This document shows, one piece after another, positions 1,937 through 60,209 of a DNA stretch of 64,000 nucleotides. Made by a program: the position numbers and the translations under genes. The stretch comes from a virus: positions 32,001 to 96,000 of the IMG/VR virus record IMGVR_UViG_3300027714_000001; one strand, written 5' to 3'. Each line of letters opens with the position of its first letter. Within the stretch, counting starts at the first letter, position 1. Under the pieces are notes generated by a model. The model had not been told where the DNA came from. It worked only from the letters and a program-made list of their open reading frames with translations, and ran no database searches.

Positions 1937-4111
1937 ATGCAAGTAAAGAAAAGAAATGGCAATATTGAGAAATTTGACCCAAATAAAAGCAGACAGTGGG
2001 TTATGTGGTCAGTTGAGGGGTTAAAAGACAGAATAAAAATGGAATACGCAATCCTAGAAGAAACTTTTAACAGATTACCTGAGATTGTTACTACAGAAGA
2101 AATACATCAAACTATAATTAATGTGTGTCTTGATAAAGAAGATATACTATATAGTAGAGTTGCTGCTAAGCTAGAATTAGCTAGCATATACAAAGCTCAA
2201 GAACACAAACTAGGGCTATATAAGCCGTACAATGCAAGCTTCACTGACATTATGGAAAGGATGGAGACTAAAGGATTGTGGGCAGGCGCGTGGCTAAACG
2301 ATGAAGACCTTGTAGAAAAAGAAGACTTAATCAATGAGTGGTTTATAGAGCTAGAGGCACACGCATTAGAGTTTTGTACTATCAAGCAGTGGTCAGATAA
2401 GTATTCTATAAAAATAAAAGGCGAAGCAGTAGAGACACCAGCAGCAGGATGCTTAGCAATAGCTATTGCTTATCATGGAGTTACTGATTTAGCTTTCGGA
2501 GTTGCACAAGATTTAATAACATACAAACTAAACCTACCAACACCAGCATTAAACGGTTGTAGAAACGGTGACTTTAACAGTATCTCATGTTGTATCATAG
2601 AGGCAGGTGACACTGTAGAAAGTATTGACACAGCAGAAGCAATTGCAAGTGCTATGACAGCAAAGAAAGCAGGTATAGGTATTACACTAGATACTAGGTC
2701 TAAAGGTGACCCTGTAAAGAACGGAGCAGTTACTCACTTAGGTAAGCACCCTCTATATAAATCTATTGAGTCTAGCGTTAAAAAATATACACAGCTAACT
2801 CGTGGGGGTTCTGCTACTATGACGTTCAAGGCTATAGACCCAGAAATTATGAAAATGCTGCTTTGGAAAACACAAAGAATTGACTTAGCACAGCGCGTAG
2901 ACAAAATGGACTACAGCTTTGCATATAATGATTTCTTCGTAGAAAGCGTACTTAACAATGATGACTGGTACTTATTCAGCAAGCATTTCGCACCACAAGT
3001 ACATGACAACTTCCATTCACCAAATTACGAAGAATACGTAAAAGAAGCTTTAAACAACAACACCCCACACACTAAAGTAAAGGCTATAGACCTACTAAAA
3101 GAGTTCCTGACAAGCAGATGGGAAACAGGTAGACTTTACTGCATTAACGTGACAAGAACAAACGAACACACGCCCTTTATAGATACTATCGTACAATCTA
3201 ATCTTTGTTTAGAGATAGCTCTACCAACTAAGCCTTACATAGACTTAGATGATTTCAGAGCAGAGAACTCAATCGGAGAGACAGCATTCTGTACTATCGC
3301 AGCATTAAACGTAGCAAATATATCCTTCGAGGAATACCCAGCAGTAGCAGAAAGAGCATTACGTACAGTAACCAAAATGATGGAAAAAGCTCCTTGTCTA
3401 ACTAAAGGGCTAAAGAATTTACTACTATCAAGACGCTCAGTAGGTATAGGTATTACAGGTCTGGCTTCTTTAGTTTATAAGAACGGCCTAGACTACGATG
3501 AATCAAAAGAATCAATAAACTTTATAGAAGAAGCAGCAGAACTACATTATCATTCACTACTAACAGCTAGTCAAAAAATGTCAAAAGAAACAGGTATCGA
3601 AGTAAAAGGTATCAAAACTGACTGGCTACCAATAGATACAAAGAAAGGAGACAAAGAACCAGTATTTGATTGGGAAAAGCTTAGAGGTATTCCTAGAATG
3701 CACAGTGTACTAGTAGCTAACATGCCTACTGAGTCTAGCGCAGTATTTAGCAATGCTACAAACGGAGTATATCCTAGCAGAAGTAGAGTAATATACAAGA
3801 AGGCAAGAAAAGGTAAAGTACAATTTATAAGTCAGCATTTTACACCTGACAAGCTAAGTGCTTGGGATGTAAACATGGTACCTTACTACGGAGTAATCCA
3901 AAACTTTGCAGACCAATCAACCTCTGCCGACTACTACACGGATTTTACTAAGTATCCGAATAAAAAAGTACCAATGAAAGAACTAATTAGATGGTTTGTG
4001 AAACAGTGGAAAGCAGGCAGCAAAACCTGTTACTACCAGAACTTCCTAGATACTAGAGGGGAAGAAGTTGAACAAGAGGATTCGTGTGAAGGCGGATCTT
4101 GCAAACTTTAA
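1937..4111 (+). CDS. nrdA: Class Ia ribonucleotide reductase large subunit with N-terminal ATP cone
   Basis: VKKRNG ATP-cone start, SCC, SNLCLEI, MPTESS motifs, C-terminal CxxxxC. Confidence 0.95.
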   Translation: MQVKKRNGNIEKFDPNKSRQWVMWSVEGLKDRIKMEYAILEETFNRLPEIVTTEEIHQTIINVCLDKEDILYSRVAAKLELASIYKAQEHKLGLYKPYNASFTDIMERMETKGLWAGAWLNDEDLVEKEDLINEWFIELEAHALEFCTIKQWSDKYSIKIKGEAVETPAAGCLAIAIAYHGVTDLAFGVAQDLITYKLNLPTPALNGCRNGDFNSISCCIIEAGDTVESIDTAEAIASAMTAKKAGIGITLDTRSKGDPVKNGAVTHLGKHPLYKSIESSVKKYTQLTRGGSATMTFKAIDPEIMKMLLWKTQRIDLAQRVDKMDYSFAYNDFFVESVLNNDDWYLFSKHFAPQVHDNFHSPNYEEYVKEALNNNTPHTKVKAIDLLKEFLTSRWETGRLYCINVTRTNEHTPFIDTIVQSNLCLEIALPTKPYIDLDDFRAENSIGETAFCTIAALNVANISFEEYPAVAERALRTVTKMMEKAPCLTKGLKNLLLSRRSVGIGITGLASLVYKNGLDYDESKESINFIEEAAELHYHSLLTASQKMSKETGIEVKGIKTDWLPIDTKKGDKEPVFDWEKLRGIPRMHSVLVANMPTESSAVFSNATNGVYPSRSRVIYKKARKGKVQFISQHFTPDKLSAWDVNMVPYYGVIQNFADQSTSADYYTDFTKYPNKKVPMKELIRWFVKQWKAGSKTCYYQNFLDTRGEEVEQEDSCEGGSCKL

Positions 4112-6933: not shown

Positions 6934-7260
6934 ATGACGGGATTAGATTTTGCTTGGGCTTTTGAAAAAATATGGGTAGCAATATTCGCATATATCTTTT
7001 GGAAAAGCAAGGAGCTTAAAAAAGAAAACAAACAAAGAGACACAGACATTCAAAACTTACAATTAGCCCAGGCTAGAGCTTCAACTATATTTATTACTGA
7101 GACTCAAATGAAAGAAGCAGTTAGGGAAGCTTTATTGCCTTACAAAGAAGGCCAACAAGAAATAAAGATACTCCTAAAAGGCTTAAACGATCACATCTTC
7201 ACATTAAGTAAAGATGTGGCAGTACAACATGCTATAGGGGCGTTAAACAATGATAAATAA
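6934..7260 (+). CDS. Single N-terminal TM, coiled-coil protein
   Basis: Hydrophobic N-terminus, strong SD (AAGGAG), coiled-coil-like remainder. Confidence 0.55.
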   Translation: MTGLDFAWAFEKIWVAIFAYIFWKSKELKKENKQRDTDIQNLQLAQARASTIFITETQMKEAVREALLPYKEGQQEIKILLKGLNDHIFTLSKDVAVQHAIGALNNDK

Positions 7261-7633
7261 ACTTTTACTAGTAAACAGTGCGGAAGACGAAAGTCTACTA
7301 AAGTATCTAAAAGATAGTGGCTACTTAATAGTGTTTTGCAAGCCCAATGAGATAATAAAGACATGCAAGAAAGTAGCTCCTCAAATAATACTAATTCTAG
7401 ATATGCAGGACGATCTAGAATTAGTAGAGTTATTAAGTAACCCTGACATATCTAGTATACCTGCTATTCACGCTACAACAGGATACCCAGTAGACGATAC
7501 TTCTAAACATACAAAGTTTTTTGATATATCAAAGAAAGTAAACATTTATAAATCACTTATAAACATGAAGATTATATCAGACAAACTATCAAATATTATA
7601 GCAAAACAAGTTGACATAGAGGATGCTTTCTAG
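7250..7633 (+). CDS. Stand-alone CheY-like receiver (REC) domain protein, degenerate
   Basis: KLLLV...YLKDSGYLIV...PQIILILD...DDLELVELL...IPAIHATTG follows the REC beta1-beta4 pattern. Confidence 0.6.
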   Translation: MINKLLLVNSAEDESLLKYLKDSGYLIVFCKPNEIIKTCKKVAPQIILILDMQDDLELVELLSNPDISSIPAIHATTGYPVDDTSKHTKFFDISKKVNIYKSLINMKIISDKLSNIIAKQVDIEDAF

Positions 7634-8964: not shown

Positions 8965-9041
8965 GTGCGTGGGGCTGGATGGGTTTAGGCTGCGGATTGC
9001 AAACTCGTATCAAGCAGGTTCGATTCCTGTCACGTACTCCA
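8965..9041 (+). tRNA. tRNA-Cys(GCA)
   Basis: GTGCGTG/CACGTAC acceptor, TT-GCA-AA loop, GGTTCGATTCC, encoded CCA. Confidence 0.9.
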
Positions 9042-10880: not shown

Positions 10881-10958
10881 GGAGTCGTAGCTAAAGTGGC
10901 ACAGCACCCGCTTCATATGCGGAAGAATATCCGATTTCGATTATCGGCGACTCTACCA
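10881..10958 (+). tRNA. tRNA-CAT (Met or Ile2)
   Basis: GGAGTCG/CGACTCT acceptor, CCGC-TT-CAT-AT-GCGG, CCA. Confidence 0.8.
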
Positions 10959-11605: not shown

Positions 11606-11694
11606 GGAAGATGTAGTCACCGTTGGGTGTGTCCCTGGTCTTGAAAACCAGTGAGTCCAAAAGGGCAGGGGTTCGACTCCTCCTTCTTCCGCCA
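11606..11694 (+). tRNA. tRNA-Ser(TGA)
   Basis: CTGGT-CT-TGA-AA-ACCAG, long variable arm, GCCA. Confidence 0.9.
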
Positions 11695-17237: not shown

Positions 17238-17318
17238 TCCTTATTAAAGCGTATCTTGAAAGAGGAATAAGAACCTTACGCTGTGATAGCATCCTGCGGT
17301 AGTACGCTTTAATAAGGA
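17238..17318 (+). ncRNA. Stem-closed small RNA candidate
   Basis: Perfect 16-bp helix TCCTTATTAAAGCGTA/TACGCTTTAATAAGGA. Confidence 0.6.
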
Positions 17319-17416
17319 AAGTTGTTCAACGGCAGCTCAAAGCGGCATAAAAGATTAATGCAAGGTAAATATTGTTTTCCTTGCGCTTTCCTTAACTACT
17401 CAACAAAGGAACAAAA

Positions 17417-17770
17417 ATGGAATACACAATAAAGTGTGATACGCTAGACGTAAAAATGGTAGTTAAAGTTTTAAATAAGGAAAAGTTTGAAGCAGCCATG
17501 ACAAAGACAAATAAGTTTTGGAGTGGAAGCGAAGGAAGAGCTCTGTGTTACGGGGGACATGTACTGGCAGGACTTAAAATGTTTGCTCAAGAATGTCTTC
17601 AGCAAATCGCCTTTAATAACTTTCTTAATGGAGATTACTTAGAATATAAGTTTGATTGGAGCAAAGAAAACCAAGGTATTGAAGGCTTTTATAATTTCGC
17701 TACAGCAGGACTGAAAGTACTGGAAATTAATTCTTGGTTTGTCTGTACTGATGAAATAGAAATAAAGTAA
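17417..17770 (+). CDS. DUF2528-like phage protein
   Basis: N.FWSG...R......G..LAGLKMFA...FDW...EGF pattern; good SD. Confidence 0.45.
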   Translation: MEYTIKCDTLDVKMVVKVLNKEKFEAAMTKTNKFWSGSEGRALCYGGHVLAGLKMFAQECLQQIAFNNFLNGDYLEYKFDWSKENQGIEGFYNFATAGLKVLEINSWFVCTDEIEIK

Positions 17771-17813
17771 AAAACTTCTTGACTAAATACTAGAATCCCC
17801 GTATAATAGATTC

Positions 17814-17959
17814 TAGAAAGTTAAGAAAAGAGATTAATACGAAGCAAGATTTACTCACTTGTTTTTATAAAGGGCGGTTTTATAGTATTGTAAACGTCTA
17901 AAGGAAGAAAGGGTACAGAGTTCTTCACTATAGTTTTAATTTCTTTTCTTAATTTTCTA
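17814..17959 (+). ncRNA. Stem-closed small RNA starting at a promoter +1
   Basis: 24-bp helix with two G-U pairs: TAGAAAGTTAAGAAAAGAGATTAA / TTAATTTCTTTTCTTAATTTTCTA. Confidence 0.65.
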
Positions 17960-17989
17960 TGCACACTAGCTTCGGCCACATAGTGTAAG

Positions 17990-18960
17990 AAAGTTAAAAC
18001 CCTTTCTGTCCAATAATCAACGTAAGTCCTGACCCAGGCATTGTAGGGAGAGAGGTGCAATTCCTACCATATCCACGAGTAACGGTCAGTTTACTGAACT
18101 AACTCTAGGGATAAGGTAGATTAAAGCAGGGCGGTTTAGCGTCCTTAAAATAACCCACTGAAAGGTGGAAAAGGTAACTTGTCAGGTTGCCGCTGTGTAG
18201 GCTCCGGTTTACAATAGTTTATCTAGACAAGCACAAGTTTCATTCCGTAAGAATGTCTTTGAGTCTAAAATCAGAGATAGCATTAAAAGGAACGAGCGTA
18301 GGTACTCCCGACAGGCGAGTATAGCGGCTAATAACCAAAAAGCCAAAATTAGACATGGGGACATATTTAAACCTGCAATCCACTCTAGTACGAAATATGC
18401 AAAAACTAATGTGTAGTTGTTTCAGTCCGAGTAGTCATATAAGGGCAGGCAGCAGTAACAAAGAATTGTTTGTAAATAGACAATCCTTAAAATACGGTGG
18501 AGTAGCGGGAACGCGAAAGACAATGTGGTGTGGAATATTTTGTAAGTCAAAAGCTTACGAACTCCTGACGGAACACATCGCAGACAACTAAATAACGCTA
18601 TTGGTTAGCATTTGACTCTTAATCAAACTATCGGGTTCAATTCCCCATTAATCAAAAGTTTCCGTCGGTACGTTATCGAAAGATTGCTAATCCCTGACAA
18701 TAATGAATCAGGGCATATAAAGGTCGAAAGCCTGCATATGTTTACAACGTAGATAAATTTAGTCTCTTAGCGGAGAGTAACAGCCCTAAAGGTTGGAAGG
18801 AATCGAAATGTAGAGTAGATACGTATGACAGTCTTATATGCTTACAAGACTTTAAAGACAAGCGCAATCGGTGGGATACTAGGGAGACCTAGTGGATACG
18901 CAGCTAACTCATATGGCTCGCAAAAGACCTGCTACTAGAAGCCTTAATCTCAGGCTGATA
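17990..18960 (+). ncRNA. Probable GOLLD-like giant structured ncRNA (boundaries approximate)
   Basis: About 1 kb with no credible ORF inside a phage tRNA cluster, many hairpins, 3' end ...GGCTCGCAAAAGACC...TAATCTCAGGC reminiscent of GOLLD (from memory), embedded tRNA-like module. Confidence 0.6.
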
Positions 18961-19084
18961 TAAATTAACTCTTTAGAGAGTATTTATGGGGACACTTTAG
19001 CTTTACCTAAACGCGAATAAGGTATAAATTATAGTAAAGAAGTTGAAGACTAATGCATTAGTTGGATGGACTAAAATATTATAA

Positions 19085-19318
19085 TTGCTAGAGTCCCACC
19101 ATAAGTATTTTAAGAGCAAAAAAAAATTGTCAGCTACCCCTAGTTGGTCTGAGAGTACTGCAATAGGAGAGTTTTACTTTAATTGTCCTATAGGTTATCA
19201 TGTAGATCATATAGTGCATTTACAAGGGCTGATAGTTTGTGGCTTGCATGTGTTAGATAACTTACAGTATCTAACAGAAGAAGAAAATTTAACAAAAAGT
19301 AACGCCTTTATCGTATAG
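19085..19318 (+). pseudogene. Truncated HNH endonuclease
   Basis: YHVDHIVHLQG..VCGLHV..NLQYLT.EEN..KSN; N-terminus missing. Confidence 0.75.
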
Positions 19319-19381
19319 TCCGGTCAATTACGCTGGTTTTGTAATCCAGTTACGTAGGTTCGAATCCTGCTAGAGGCACCA
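19304..19381 (+). tRNA. tRNA-Thr(TGT)
   Basis: GCCTTTA/TAGAGGC acceptor, TT-TGT-AA loop, ACCA. Confidence 0.85.
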
Positions 19382-19387
19382 AATTAC

Positions 19388-19681
19388 ATTTGACGTAATG
19401 AAACACTAAGTTCTTGCTAAAATACTAGTGTTCCACCGTAACAAGTAGTCTCCTCAACAGGATGAAAGCGACAACGGAACTAAGCAAACAAATACATATA
19501 AGGTTCGATCCCTTTTCTCTGGTGAGTATATGTATGAACAATAGAATTACTGTTCATCTTACATGTAGAATGGTTCATAGCCAGCTATTTTGTACAATGA
19601 ATAACATACCGTAGAGCAAGTCGCACTTGCTAAATATCTAAAGATATGATTTAACAGGTTTCTTTAGACATTACCTCAAAT
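19388..19681 (+). ncRNA. ~295-nt stem-closed structured RNA candidate
   Basis: ATTTGACGTAATG/CATTACCTCAAAT terminal helix, internal T-loop-like AAGGTTCGATCCCTT, no ORF. Confidence 0.5.
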
Positions 19682-20725: not shown

Positions 20726-20808
20726 GCGTGGGTGGCTAATACAAATTGGCACAGTTACTGGGTTTAGAACCCAGGCCTTTGAGGGTTCGAGTCCCTCTCC
20801 GCGTACCA
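20726..20808 (+). tRNA. tRNA-Leu(TAG), short variable loop
   Basis: CTGGG-TT-TAG-AA-CCCAG, ACCA. Confidence 0.85.
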
Positions 20809-20813
20809 AATAT

Positions 20814-20888
20814 AGTCGATTAGCTCAAAGGCAGAGCAGTGGTGTTACATACCAAAGGTTGGGATCTCGGAACTCCCATCGACTACCA
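20814..20888 (+). tRNA. tRNA-Val(TAC)
   Basis: AGTCGAT/ATCGACT acceptor, GT-TAC-AT loop, atypical T loop. Confidence 0.8.
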
Positions 20889-21603: not shown

Positions 21604-21678
21604 AGGAAAGTAGCTGAGATGGATTAGCGCGGGTGTGAAGTACCCGAGACGGCAGATCGTTACTGCCCTTTCCTACCA
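21604..21678 (+). tRNA. tRNA-Phe(GAA)
   Basis: AGGAAAG/CTTTCCT acceptor, CGGGT-GT-GAA-GT-ACCCG. Confidence 0.85.
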
Positions 21679-25515: not shown

Positions 25516-25590
25516 ACTCCTGTAGCTTAACGGCAAAGCGCAGGCTTCTAAACCCTAGAAATGGGAGTTCAACTCTCCCCAGGAGTACCA
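25516..25590 (+). tRNA. tRNA with apparent CTA (amber) anticodon and weak anticodon stem
   Basis: ACTCCTG/CAGGAGT acceptor plus ACCA, canonical D and T arms, CAGGC-TT-CTA-AA-CCCTA. Confidence 0.65.
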
Positions 25591-58229: not shown

Positions 58230-60209
58230 ATGAAATATAATACTAAGTTATTAGCTAAATTACAAGTAGTTAAAGATCATGAAGAAGATGAAGACGAGTT
58301 AGTTATCGAAGGATACGCTAATACCGTAACTAAAGATAGAGCAGGAGATGTTATACTACGCTCAGCGTGGGAAACAAAAACCGCTATGTCTAACTTCTTA
58401 AAAAATCCTATTATACTAGGCTACCACGATCATTCAAACCCTATAGGGGTTATGTTAGGTTATGAAGTTGATGACCTAGGCCTTAAAATTAGGGCTAAGA
58501 TTAGTAAGGGAGCAGGACGAGTATACGATCTAATAAAAGATAAGGTATTAACTACCTTTAGTGTTGGATTCAACATATTAGACGCAGAGTACGATGAAGT
58601 AAAAGACATATTCTTTATTAAGGATGTAGAACTACACGAAATATCTGTTGTATCGGTTCCTTGTAACCAAGACTCAACATTTTCAGTAGCAAAAAGTATG
58701 GACGCTCAAGATTATGAGCAATTCAAAAAAATATTAGCGCCGGAATCAGGCGAAACAAAGGAAGAAAAAATGACACTCGAAGAAATTAAAGCATTGGCAG
58801 CCGAGCTAGCTAAAGCAAACACCCCAGTTAAAGCTGATCCCGTATTCGACGTAGTTGCAGAAGCTACTAAAGCAGCAGCAGCAGCTGTAGCACAAGCAGA
58901 AGCAGTTCGTGTAGCTAAAGAAGACGCAGCAGCAAAATCTGCTACAGACCTAGCTAACAGCAAAGCAGAAGCTAAAGCAAACGCTATGGAAGCAGCTAAA
59001 GATTTAGTTGCAGAATTAGAAACTAAGTTAAGCGCAAAAGATTCAGCATTTGCTGACCTTGTTAAAGCTAACAACGACCAGATCGTTTCTCTTAAAGAAG
59101 AAATTGCTCAAGTAGTTGCATCTCGCTCTAACAACGTAACAGCTATCGCAAAGGGCATTAACGGACCGTCGTATGACGCCAAAGCAATGGGCGATACTGC
59201 AGACAACCTAATGTTCTTAAGCACAATTAAGAAAGTAGATATGTTTGATACCGAATATGGTAAGAGCATCAAAGCTATCAACCAATCTTCTAGCATTGAA
59301 GTATCTGGTGAAGGTTATGAGACTACTTTCTCTACTAACTTATATCGTGACATTCAGGCATTGTTAGTTGTTGCACCCTTATTCAATGAAATGAATATGA
59401 CTTCTGCACAAATGACATTCCCAATCAATCCAAATCGTAGCACAGCTACTTGGATTTCTGCAAGTAACATGGCAGACAACACAGCTAAAGCCCGTACAGG
59501 TGAAGCATTAACTGTTGCGCTTACTGAGATTACACTTAAGACCTTTAAGCTAGCTGCTAAAGTATACTTAACTGAAGAAACTCAAGAAGATGCTATCATG
59601 GCTCTTGTACCTATTTTACGTCAACACCTAGTAGAAGCTCATGCAGCATCAATCGACGCAGCATTCCTAGTTGGTGACGGCGCAAACAAGCCAAAAGGTC
59701 TTGTTACACAAGCCAAAGCAGCAGGCGGATTACAGTCTCTAGCGACAGCAGCAAACACTACTAACGTATTAGTAACTGCAGCAGGTATCTTAGAAGCTCG
59801 TAGAGGTTTAGGTCTATACGGAATTAACCTTTCAGAACTTTATGTTGTTATTTCACAAGACGCTTACTGGGATCTTATCCAAGATGCAGATTGGGCTGAC
59901 GTACAGCAAGTTGGCGTTTCTAACGCAACTAAGCTAGTTGGTGAAGTAGGTAACATTTACGGAATGAGAGTTCTAGTATCTAGCGGTTTTGCTGATAAAA
60001 CATCTGGCGGAACTTACGCAATCCTACTTAACTCAAGCAACTTCGTTGTTCCACGTCAACGTGGCGTAACAGTACGTAGTGACTTTGAAGTAGAGCTAGA
60101 CCGTACAGTATTCGTTGCAACACAGCGTCTAAACTTACAACCTTGGATCGAAGAAACTGCAGGCAGTGGTAACGGTAAAGGTGTAGTAGCAGTTAACTAC
60201 GCAACATAA
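58230..60209 (+). CDS. Prohead protease - major capsid protein fusion
   Basis: HK97 protease motifs (IEGYAN..KDR.GD, HDH, FSVGF, EISVVSVP), Ala-rich delta/scaffold segment, T5 pb8-like capsid domain. Confidence 0.92.
   Translation: MKYNTKLLAKLQVVKDHEEDEDELVIEGYANTVTKDRAGDVILRSAWETKTAMSNFLKNPIILGYHDHSNPIGVMLGYEVDDLGLKIRAKISKGAGRVYDLIKDKVLTTFSVGFNILDAEYDEVKDIFFIKDVELHEISVVSVPCNQDSTFSVAKSMDAQDYEQFKKILAPESGETKEEKMTLEEIKALAAELAKANTPVKADPVFDVVAEATKAAAAAVAQAEAVRVAKEDAAAKSATDLANSKAEAKANAMEAAKDLVAELETKLSAKDSAFADLVKANNDQIVSLKEEIAQVVASRSNNVTAIAKGINGPSYDAKAMGDTADNLMFLSTIKKVDMFDTEYGKSIKAINQSSSIEVSGEGYETTFSTNLYRDIQALLVVAPLFNEMNMTSAQMTFPINPNRSTATWISASNMADNTAKARTGEALTVALTEITLKTFKLAAKVYLTEETQEDAIMALVPILRQHLVEAHAASIDAAFLVGDGANKPKGLVTQAKAAGGLQSLATAANTTNVLVTAAGILEARRGLGLYGINLSELYVVISQDAYWDLIQDADWADVQQVGVSNATKLVGEVGNIYGMRVLVSSGFADKTSGGTYAILLNSSNFVVPRQRGVTVRSDFEVELDRTVFVATQRLNLQPWIEETAGSGNGKGVVAVNYAT

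Follow-up and report, generated by a model that had tools for sequence, protein, structure and literature searches.

A GOLLD RNA of a T5-like marine phage with a probably tRNA-derived, acceptor-less module in its linker

GOLLD RNAs (Rfam RF02032) rank among the largest RNAs of bacteria and phages for which the architecture has been solved, but they have no known function. Members of the family examined by cryo-EM form cages of 10 to 14 chains. According to the structural papers, tRNAs are sometimes found in the linker J13/15, which is unresolved and lies inside the cage. A Mycolicibacterium GOLLD carries a tRNA-Phe in J13/15, and a pseudo-tRNA has been reported from inside the GOLLD of Mycobacterium aubagnense. 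ROOL RNA resembles GOLLD as a large phage or prophage RNA located near tRNA islands and forming a cage with an unresolved interior linker, but it is unrelated in sequence and fold. A different comparison is offered by anti-defence phage tRNAs, such as the T5 tRNAs for Lys, Thr and Asn that act against PARIS AriB, the tRNA-Tyr that acts against retron Ec78, and anticodon-loop variants (eLife 2023).

The locus described here lies in a stretch of phage DNA of 64,000 nt, called the window, to which coordinates refer unless another locus is named. The plus strand of 18131–18956 very probably encodes a genuine GOLLD RNA whose linker holds an acceptor-less module derived from a tRNA cassette; the identity of the RNA is surer than the role of the module. 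Since both linker tRNAs and a pseudo-tRNA have been published, this kind of element is known, and the locus adds a member to it rather than a new element type. As with the GOLLDs of env-38 (a 14-mer), Streptococcus agalactiae (a 12-mer) and the Lactobacillus brevis prophage, the family model is matched over its full length and above the cut-off. A 3' domain with a pseudoknot, a variable 5' domain and linker, a length of ~830 nt and the phage tRNA setting are further common features. The locus differs in belonging to a ~106-kb marine phage with terminal repeats and in having a 5' domain that matches the Vibrio phage branch only. Multimers were seen in the solved members and are predicted by homology for the RNA of the window.

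The Rfam GOLLD model matched at 18523–18956 (+), covering model positions 1–416 of 416 without truncation; the score of 175.2 bits exceeds the gathering score, 150. This is the sole match in the phage genome. A first-pass annotation of the same DNA had assigned the family from sequence motifs and had named the Rfam GOLLD and ROOL models as the appropriate check; the match above the curated cut-off upholds the assignment, and the ROOL model had no match in the window. As the scope of RF02032 is the conserved 3' half of GOLLD plus the hairpin before the linker, and as homology continues upstream to ~18131, the complete GOLLD is about 826 nt long (18131–18956), a size typical of the family. The upstream homology was obtained with an nhmmer profile, which aligned 18131–18522 with the regions preceding the Rfam match in Vibrio phages D51, D419 and D69. 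The nearest relative (locus L156) can be aligned to the window from ~18127 on. The two-domain build of GOLLD is thus found here, with a variable 5' domain, a variable linker and a conserved 3' domain in ~800 nt (Table 1). The start given in the first-pass annotation, 17990, falls between the first base covered by RNA-library contigs (17966) and the start of GOLLD homology.

A protein-coding reading of 17990–18960 was rejected. No ORF exceeds 78 aa in this interval, in agreement with its initial description as about 1 kb free of credible ORFs, and the short 'hypothetical proteins' annotated in the homologous regions of Vibrio phages overlie Rfam GOLLD matches. Recoding of the genome as the cause of the ORF-free stretch was likewise rejected: TAG ends 10 of 81 long ORFs, and hence the standard code is used.

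Table 1. Features of the GOLLD locus in window coordinates, with their basis and, where compared, their identity to the nearest relative, L156
Feature	Position	Strand	Basis or description	Identity to L156
Putative sigma-70-like promoter	17779–17807 (-35, 17779–17784; -10, 17802–17807)	+	TTGACT, 17 nt, TATAAT; 11/12 consensus positions	
Leader domain	17814–17959	+	24-bp terminal helix, 17814–17837 with 17936–17959	
Extent in RNA-library contigs	17966–18955	+	metatranscriptome contigs, four studies	
GOLLD 5' domain (variable half)	18131–18522	+	nhmmer homology to Vibrio phage GOLLDs	80%
Conserved hairpin opening the Rfam GOLLD model (positions 1–61)	18523–18583	+	covariance-model alignment	97%
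Variable linker (J13/15 in the literature) with tRNA-like module	18584–18652	+	unpaired, variable model positions 62–128	
D-arm-like hairpin	18597–18609	+	4-bp stem, 5-nt loop with GG; folds as hairpin	100%
Anticodon-arm-like hairpin	18611–18627	+	5-bp stem, 7-nt loop, U33, CUU at 18618–18620, A37/A38	62% (fastest-changing part)
T-arm-like hairpin	18633–18645	+	3 G-C pairs around canonical 7-nt T loop	
Variable loop plus T arm				80%
GOLLD 3' domain (conserved half, with pseudoknot)	18653–18956	+	RF02032 alignment through position 416	95%
tRNA-Thr(UGU), next gene downstream of GOLLD	19304–19381	+	ARAGORN; Rfam tRNA 56.9 bits	

The record from which the window is taken is a 106,179-bp IMG/VR virus with terminal repeats. 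With PHROG matches to ribonucleotide reductase, NAMPT, terminase, portal, head and tail genes, the source is a marine tailed phage of the T5-like type. The closest GenBank GOLLDs belong to Vibrio phages of 113–187 kb, in which they are annotated as several short hypothetical proteins. The GOLLD sits in a phage tRNA island, a setting that the first-pass annotation gives for GOLLD RNAs in general, and ARAGORN called 20 tRNA genes around it. In L156, a tRNA-Thr(UGU) also follows the GOLLD. Rfam and ARAGORN disagree on some of the tRNA calls (disputed sites at 8965–9038, 10881–10958, 11606–11694, 20726–20885 and 21604–21678), with three made by Rfam alone and three by ARAGORN alone, which brings the island to ~23 tRNA or tRNA-like genes instead of 20.

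A putative promoter precedes the GOLLD (Table 1), in a region where the total count of promoter-like sites is not above that of shuffled sequence. The segment just downstream, 17801–17843, is 88% conserved in L156. Between this promoter and the GOLLD lies a leader domain with a predicted minimum free energy of −43 kcal/mol (z −4.96), a value reached by none of 200 shuffled sequences. Its long terminal helix includes two G-U pairs, and 7 nt separate the end of the domain from the start of the RNA-library contig X8 described below. The leader would be removed by processing, for which the domain may serve as a signal, for example as an RNase III site.

Marine metatranscriptome runs contain the GOLLD stretch. 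In X8 it is represented by one 946-nt contig that spans 17966–18862 without a mismatch and has adapter letters at both ends, and in X12 by four pieces within 18044–18873. The contigs of X13 and X17 come from a strain of ~97% identity; they cover 18501–18955 and then run into unlike sequence. Contigs from all four studies bridge the module. RNA-library contigs may include DNA and show no RNA ends, strand or level; they fit an RNA that is expressed and not cut at the module, without proving it. The first-pass annotation had let its reading stand or fall with a model match and a discrete stable transcript. The match is clear, and the stretch is present in contigs of four RNA studies, which by themselves cannot prove transcription. 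Most of 17300–17965 and 18994–19600 is devoid of contigs, and this missing cover is not evidence for discrete ends. The end of the X8 contig at 18862, inside the 3' domain, and the contig depths were likewise not used as evidence.

Within the linker, at 18597–18645, tRNA-type D, anticodon and T arms are all present in tRNA order and with tRNA spacing, including U33, a purine at position 37, the GG of the D loop and a T loop of the UUC type. The three arms were thus found where the first-pass annotation had placed them. Its description of the element as tRNA-Lys(CTT)-like also holds, as the anticodon is CUU and real tRNA-Lys(CUU) genes of phages have exactly the same 17-nt anticodon arm; a scan of IMG/VR with these 17 nt returned ordinary tRNA-Lys genes only. 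Departures from a tRNA are the short D loop of 5 nt and the T stem of 3 bp. The lack of an acceptor and CCA end was confirmed. Only 2 of 7 acceptor-strand positions pair in the canonical register, there is no CCA, and ARAGORN called no tRNA at the module. The Rfam tRNA model scored 19.8 bits at 18599–18654, below its gathering score of 29. The E-value of this match, 0.52 after correction for 4227 families, corresponds by our own division to ~1e-4 in 1.6 kb for the tRNA model alone, and taken as a single family the match is significant.

The fold energy of the module was dropped as evidence, as it is no better than that of shuffled sequences (z −1.0 to −1.4) and the z-scores overall, −0.5 to −1.8, are uninformative. 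The D arm may give way to a competing fold, in which 18601–18608 pairs with 18648–18655. A kissing interaction of the anticodon loop with its own GOLLD was rejected: reverse-complement 5-mers and 6-mers of the own loop are not in excess over those of the loops of other loci (160 against 155 ± 18, and 21 against 27 ± 6). The only tRNA-Lys of the phage genome has the anticodon UUU, the CUU isoacceptor being absent. The module as a recent copy of this tRNA-Lys(UUU) was ruled out by an alignment, in which the coordinates of L223 and L199 are poor. Among the ten neighbouring ORFs, Pfam revealed no RNA ligase, kinase or CCA-adding enzyme.

The nearest relative, L156, is a 15-kb metagenome contig that is 88% identical over 18127–19000 and contains a GOLLD scoring 178 bits; a search of IMG/VR for closer relatives with three window-specific patterns found nothing. 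L156 keeps all three hairpins of the module. In its anticodon stem, two pairs have changed on both sides with pairing kept. In the T stem, one G-C pair has become A-U, again with pairing kept, a one-base deletion removes a mismatch, and the T loop is unchanged. The anticodon loop of L156 is longer by 4 nt and forms either an 11-nt loop or a longer stem capped by a tetraloop, not a loop of seven bases. In the ~97% identical strain, found in the RNA libraries of two studies, the module differs only at the unpaired base 18646, and hence its anticodon loop is kept. From these substitutions, three pairs in one relative, the three hairpins and the elbow formed by D loop and T loop appear to be kept by selection. 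The anticodon loop appears not to be, as far as the lineage of the window is concerned.

Linker tRNAs were surveyed across the family in two ways. For the first survey, 118 IMG/VR loci were fetched with a generic pattern of the GOLLD 3' end, of which ~100 matched a 3'-domain profile. Most of their linkers are 31–123 nt long, AU-rich and of little structure, and contain no tRNA. Complete linker tRNAs occurred in two loci (L065, Met; L098, Asp), where the Rfam alignment includes them at the model positions that the module occupies in the window, and a degenerate one in L079. L172 is another locus with a degenerate linker tRNA. The second survey used a pattern in which a T loop is followed by the conserved 3'-domain start. 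It yielded 68 loci, 61 of them with a confirmed GOLLD 3' domain and a tRNA immediately 5' of it. The loci with a linker tRNA are L158–L214, L218, L219, L223, L065 and L098. In L098, a phage-borne tmRNA (144.9 bits) was also noted at 2635–2985 (-) of that locus, ~470 nt upstream of the GOLLD and in a dense tRNA array.

The 61 loci reduce to 46 different linker tRNAs, of which ARAGORN called nearly every one, and the insertion point 5' of the 3' domain and the order of the arms are those of the window, as they are in Mycolicibacterium and M. aubagnense. Most of these cassettes are complete cloverleaves, whereas in the window and L156 the acceptor stem is missing altogether, the T stem has 3 bp and the D loop 5 nt. 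In intact cassettes, the T stem and the conserved 3'-domain start lie ~14 nt apart, the 3' strand of the acceptor included; in the window, only 4 nt lie between them. The module is hence best read as such a cassette after loss of its acceptor stem.

The 46 linker tRNAs have 32 types of anticodon loop. Lys-CUU is the commonest anticodon (8 of 46), followed by Arg-UCU (5), and the Lys-CUU anticodon loop of the window is common to these eight intact cassettes and to L157 (see below). Eight loops have 8 nt and one has 6 nt, and some anticodons have A34. Of the 35 loops with seven bases, 33 have U33 and 32 have a purine at position 37; variation is greatest at positions 34–36. Pairs of GOLLDs with 3' domains of 95–100% identity have linker tRNA bodies of ~80% and loops of ~70% identity. 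L196 and L212, for example, are 99.7% identical in the 3' domain and 98.5% in the tRNA body and differ in loop length and anticodon, while L196 and L201 have 97.5% identity in the 3' domain and 68% in the tRNA body. One anticodon stem is common to twelve linker-tRNA sequences with ten different loops. It is mostly in the anticodon that the linker tRNAs of near-identical GOLLDs differ, a hint of its importance across the family at large.

Anticodon-like elements were also seen in other linkers. L157 is a GC-rich (60%) GOLLD at 7095–7545 (-) of its locus, with 149.7 bits just under the Rfam cut-off of 150. At the same site, its linker has an element of the tRNA-Lys(CUU) type in which the acceptor is reduced to 4 pairs; the element matches the tRNA model at positions 4–67 with 44 bits. 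When L157 was aligned with the module by MAFFT, the T arm was misaligned, and formal pair counts are hence not given. Vibrio phages D51, D419, D260 and D239 (L153, L155, L224, L225) have an invariant linker hairpin of 6 bp with a canonical 7-nt loop of the anticodon type and the anticodon GUU, while the linker flanks on both sides vary. The linkers of the nearest GenBank relatives are short and without D or T arms.

A history of the locus can be proposed from these comparisons. The promoter upstream probably drives its transcription, and the leader hairpin would then probably be cut away to leave an RNA of ~1 kb. By homology to the GOLLDs solved by cryo-EM, this RNA would be expected to form a cage of 12 to 14 chains in which the variable linker points inward. 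The linker module probably descends from the tRNA cassette found at exactly this position in a large branch of the family, the ancestral cassette of the window having presumably been of the tRNA-Lys(CUU) type. Its acceptor stem appears to have been lost, the 3' strand being missing and the 5' strand no longer pairing. With the acceptor stem gone there would be nothing for RNase P and RNase Z to cut, so that the module would stay tethered and persist as a covalently bound tRNA core of three hairpins.

Any role of the module is a matter of interpretation. That it is a working tRNA-Lys(CUU), cut out of a GOLLD precursor and charged, would suit a genome that encodes tRNA-Lys(UUU) but no CUU isoacceptor, and other GOLLDs do have intact tRNAs at this site. 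However, the module has neither acceptor stem nor discriminator nor CCA context, its T stem has just 3 bp, the tRNA model stays below its cut-off with no ARAGORN call, and the RNA-library contigs run across it; a released working tRNA is nearly excluded. It seems a less remote but still rather unlikely reading that the module is a neutral relic, i.e. an embedded tRNA decaying after the loss of its acceptor in a linker that need only be a flexible spacer of a certain length. The AU-rich linkers of little structure in most GOLLDs, with their widely differing lengths, the short linkers of the nearest GenBank relatives, the further degenerate tRNAs of L079 and L172 and the unremarkable fold energy would all be in keeping with such decay, as would the anticodon arm as the part that changes fastest between the window and L156. 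The pattern of change within the stems argues otherwise: all three stem-pair substitutions between the window and L156 are compensated, the one-base deletion in L156 leaves a better T stem, and neither the D arm nor the T loop has changed in a linker where variation is otherwise free.

The first-pass annotation had proposed a decoy for tRNA-Lys anticodon nucleases such as PrrC. In a broader form of this idea, a tethered Lys anticodon arm that cannot be charged, displayed in 12–14 copies per GOLLD particle, would act as a decoy or sponge for host defence nucleases that target the anticodon (PrrC, PARIS AriB and the like) or for tRNA-modifying enzymes. The arm is indeed a perfect tRNA-Lys(CUU) arm, and L157, of very different base composition, also displays Lys-CUU on an element with a crippled acceptor stem of 4 bp. 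That Lys-CUU leads among the linker-tRNA anticodons points in the same direction, and the differences between near-identical GOLLDs, lying mainly in the linker anticodon with U33 and purine 37 kept, are what selection on anticodon identity would be expected to leave. The GUU hairpin of the Vibrio phages, invariant amid variable flanks, and the use of tRNAs by T5-type phages against PARIS and retron defences (PMC11464382, PMC11555353, PMC12409363) may be added. Against this stands L156, in which the loop has been rebuilt, so that the lineage of the window itself does not conserve the display of the anticodon. Furthermore, most linkers of the first, unbiased set are without any tRNA-like element, cryo-EM places the linker inside the cage, and Lys-UUU is the target described for both AriB and PrrC, the known substrate of PrrC being tRNA-Lys(UUU) and not CUU (PMC10264068). 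Weakened by L156, a decoy for Lys-specific anticodon nucleases would by this analysis be quite improbable. A tethered tRNA core that can no longer be cut out, and whose hairpins appear to be kept, is the reading followed here.

With the anti-defence tRNAs of phages, the locus has in common the T5-like phage setting, the Lys anticodon arm and, among the linker tRNAs of close GOLLDs, the anticodon-focused variation, but those tRNAs are free and chargeable and replace cleaved host tRNAs, whereas the module is neither chargeable nor releasable and has no linked defence system. On a broader view, the GOLLD linker could be a display site for anticodon arms, with a conserved tRNA scaffold being exchanged or turned to new anticodons much faster than the cage evolves. 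The window would then represent a permanently tethered Lys-CUU form engaging host factors that read anticodons, and GOLLD would be a counter-defence particle; we regard this as speculative and consider it unlikely. If true, the display site would target nucleases of host defence, AriB and PrrC for example, or enzymes that modify tRNAs, either within the cage or on its surface.

What the locus itself contributes is a well-delimited GOLLD from a T5-like marine phage, with RNA-library support and a close relative, and a natural variant in which release of the linker tRNA is apparently precluded. As a lead, the apparent turnover of linker tRNAs with its focus on the anticodon, found on other loci, is more useful; it suggests that the function of GOLLD be sought by experiment in tRNA biology and in defence systems that target tRNAs. 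Such experiments are practical in those Vibrio phages that have a GOLLD and can be cultivated.

Two observations concern other parts of the window. A tRNA with the anticodon CUA, i.e. of the amber-suppressor type, lies at 25516–25590; it is labelled Pyl by ARAGORN and scores 57.6 bits with the Rfam tRNA model. An ORF of 659 aa at 58230–60209 matches PHROGs of both the head maturation protease and the major head protein, which suggests a fused protease-capsid gene.
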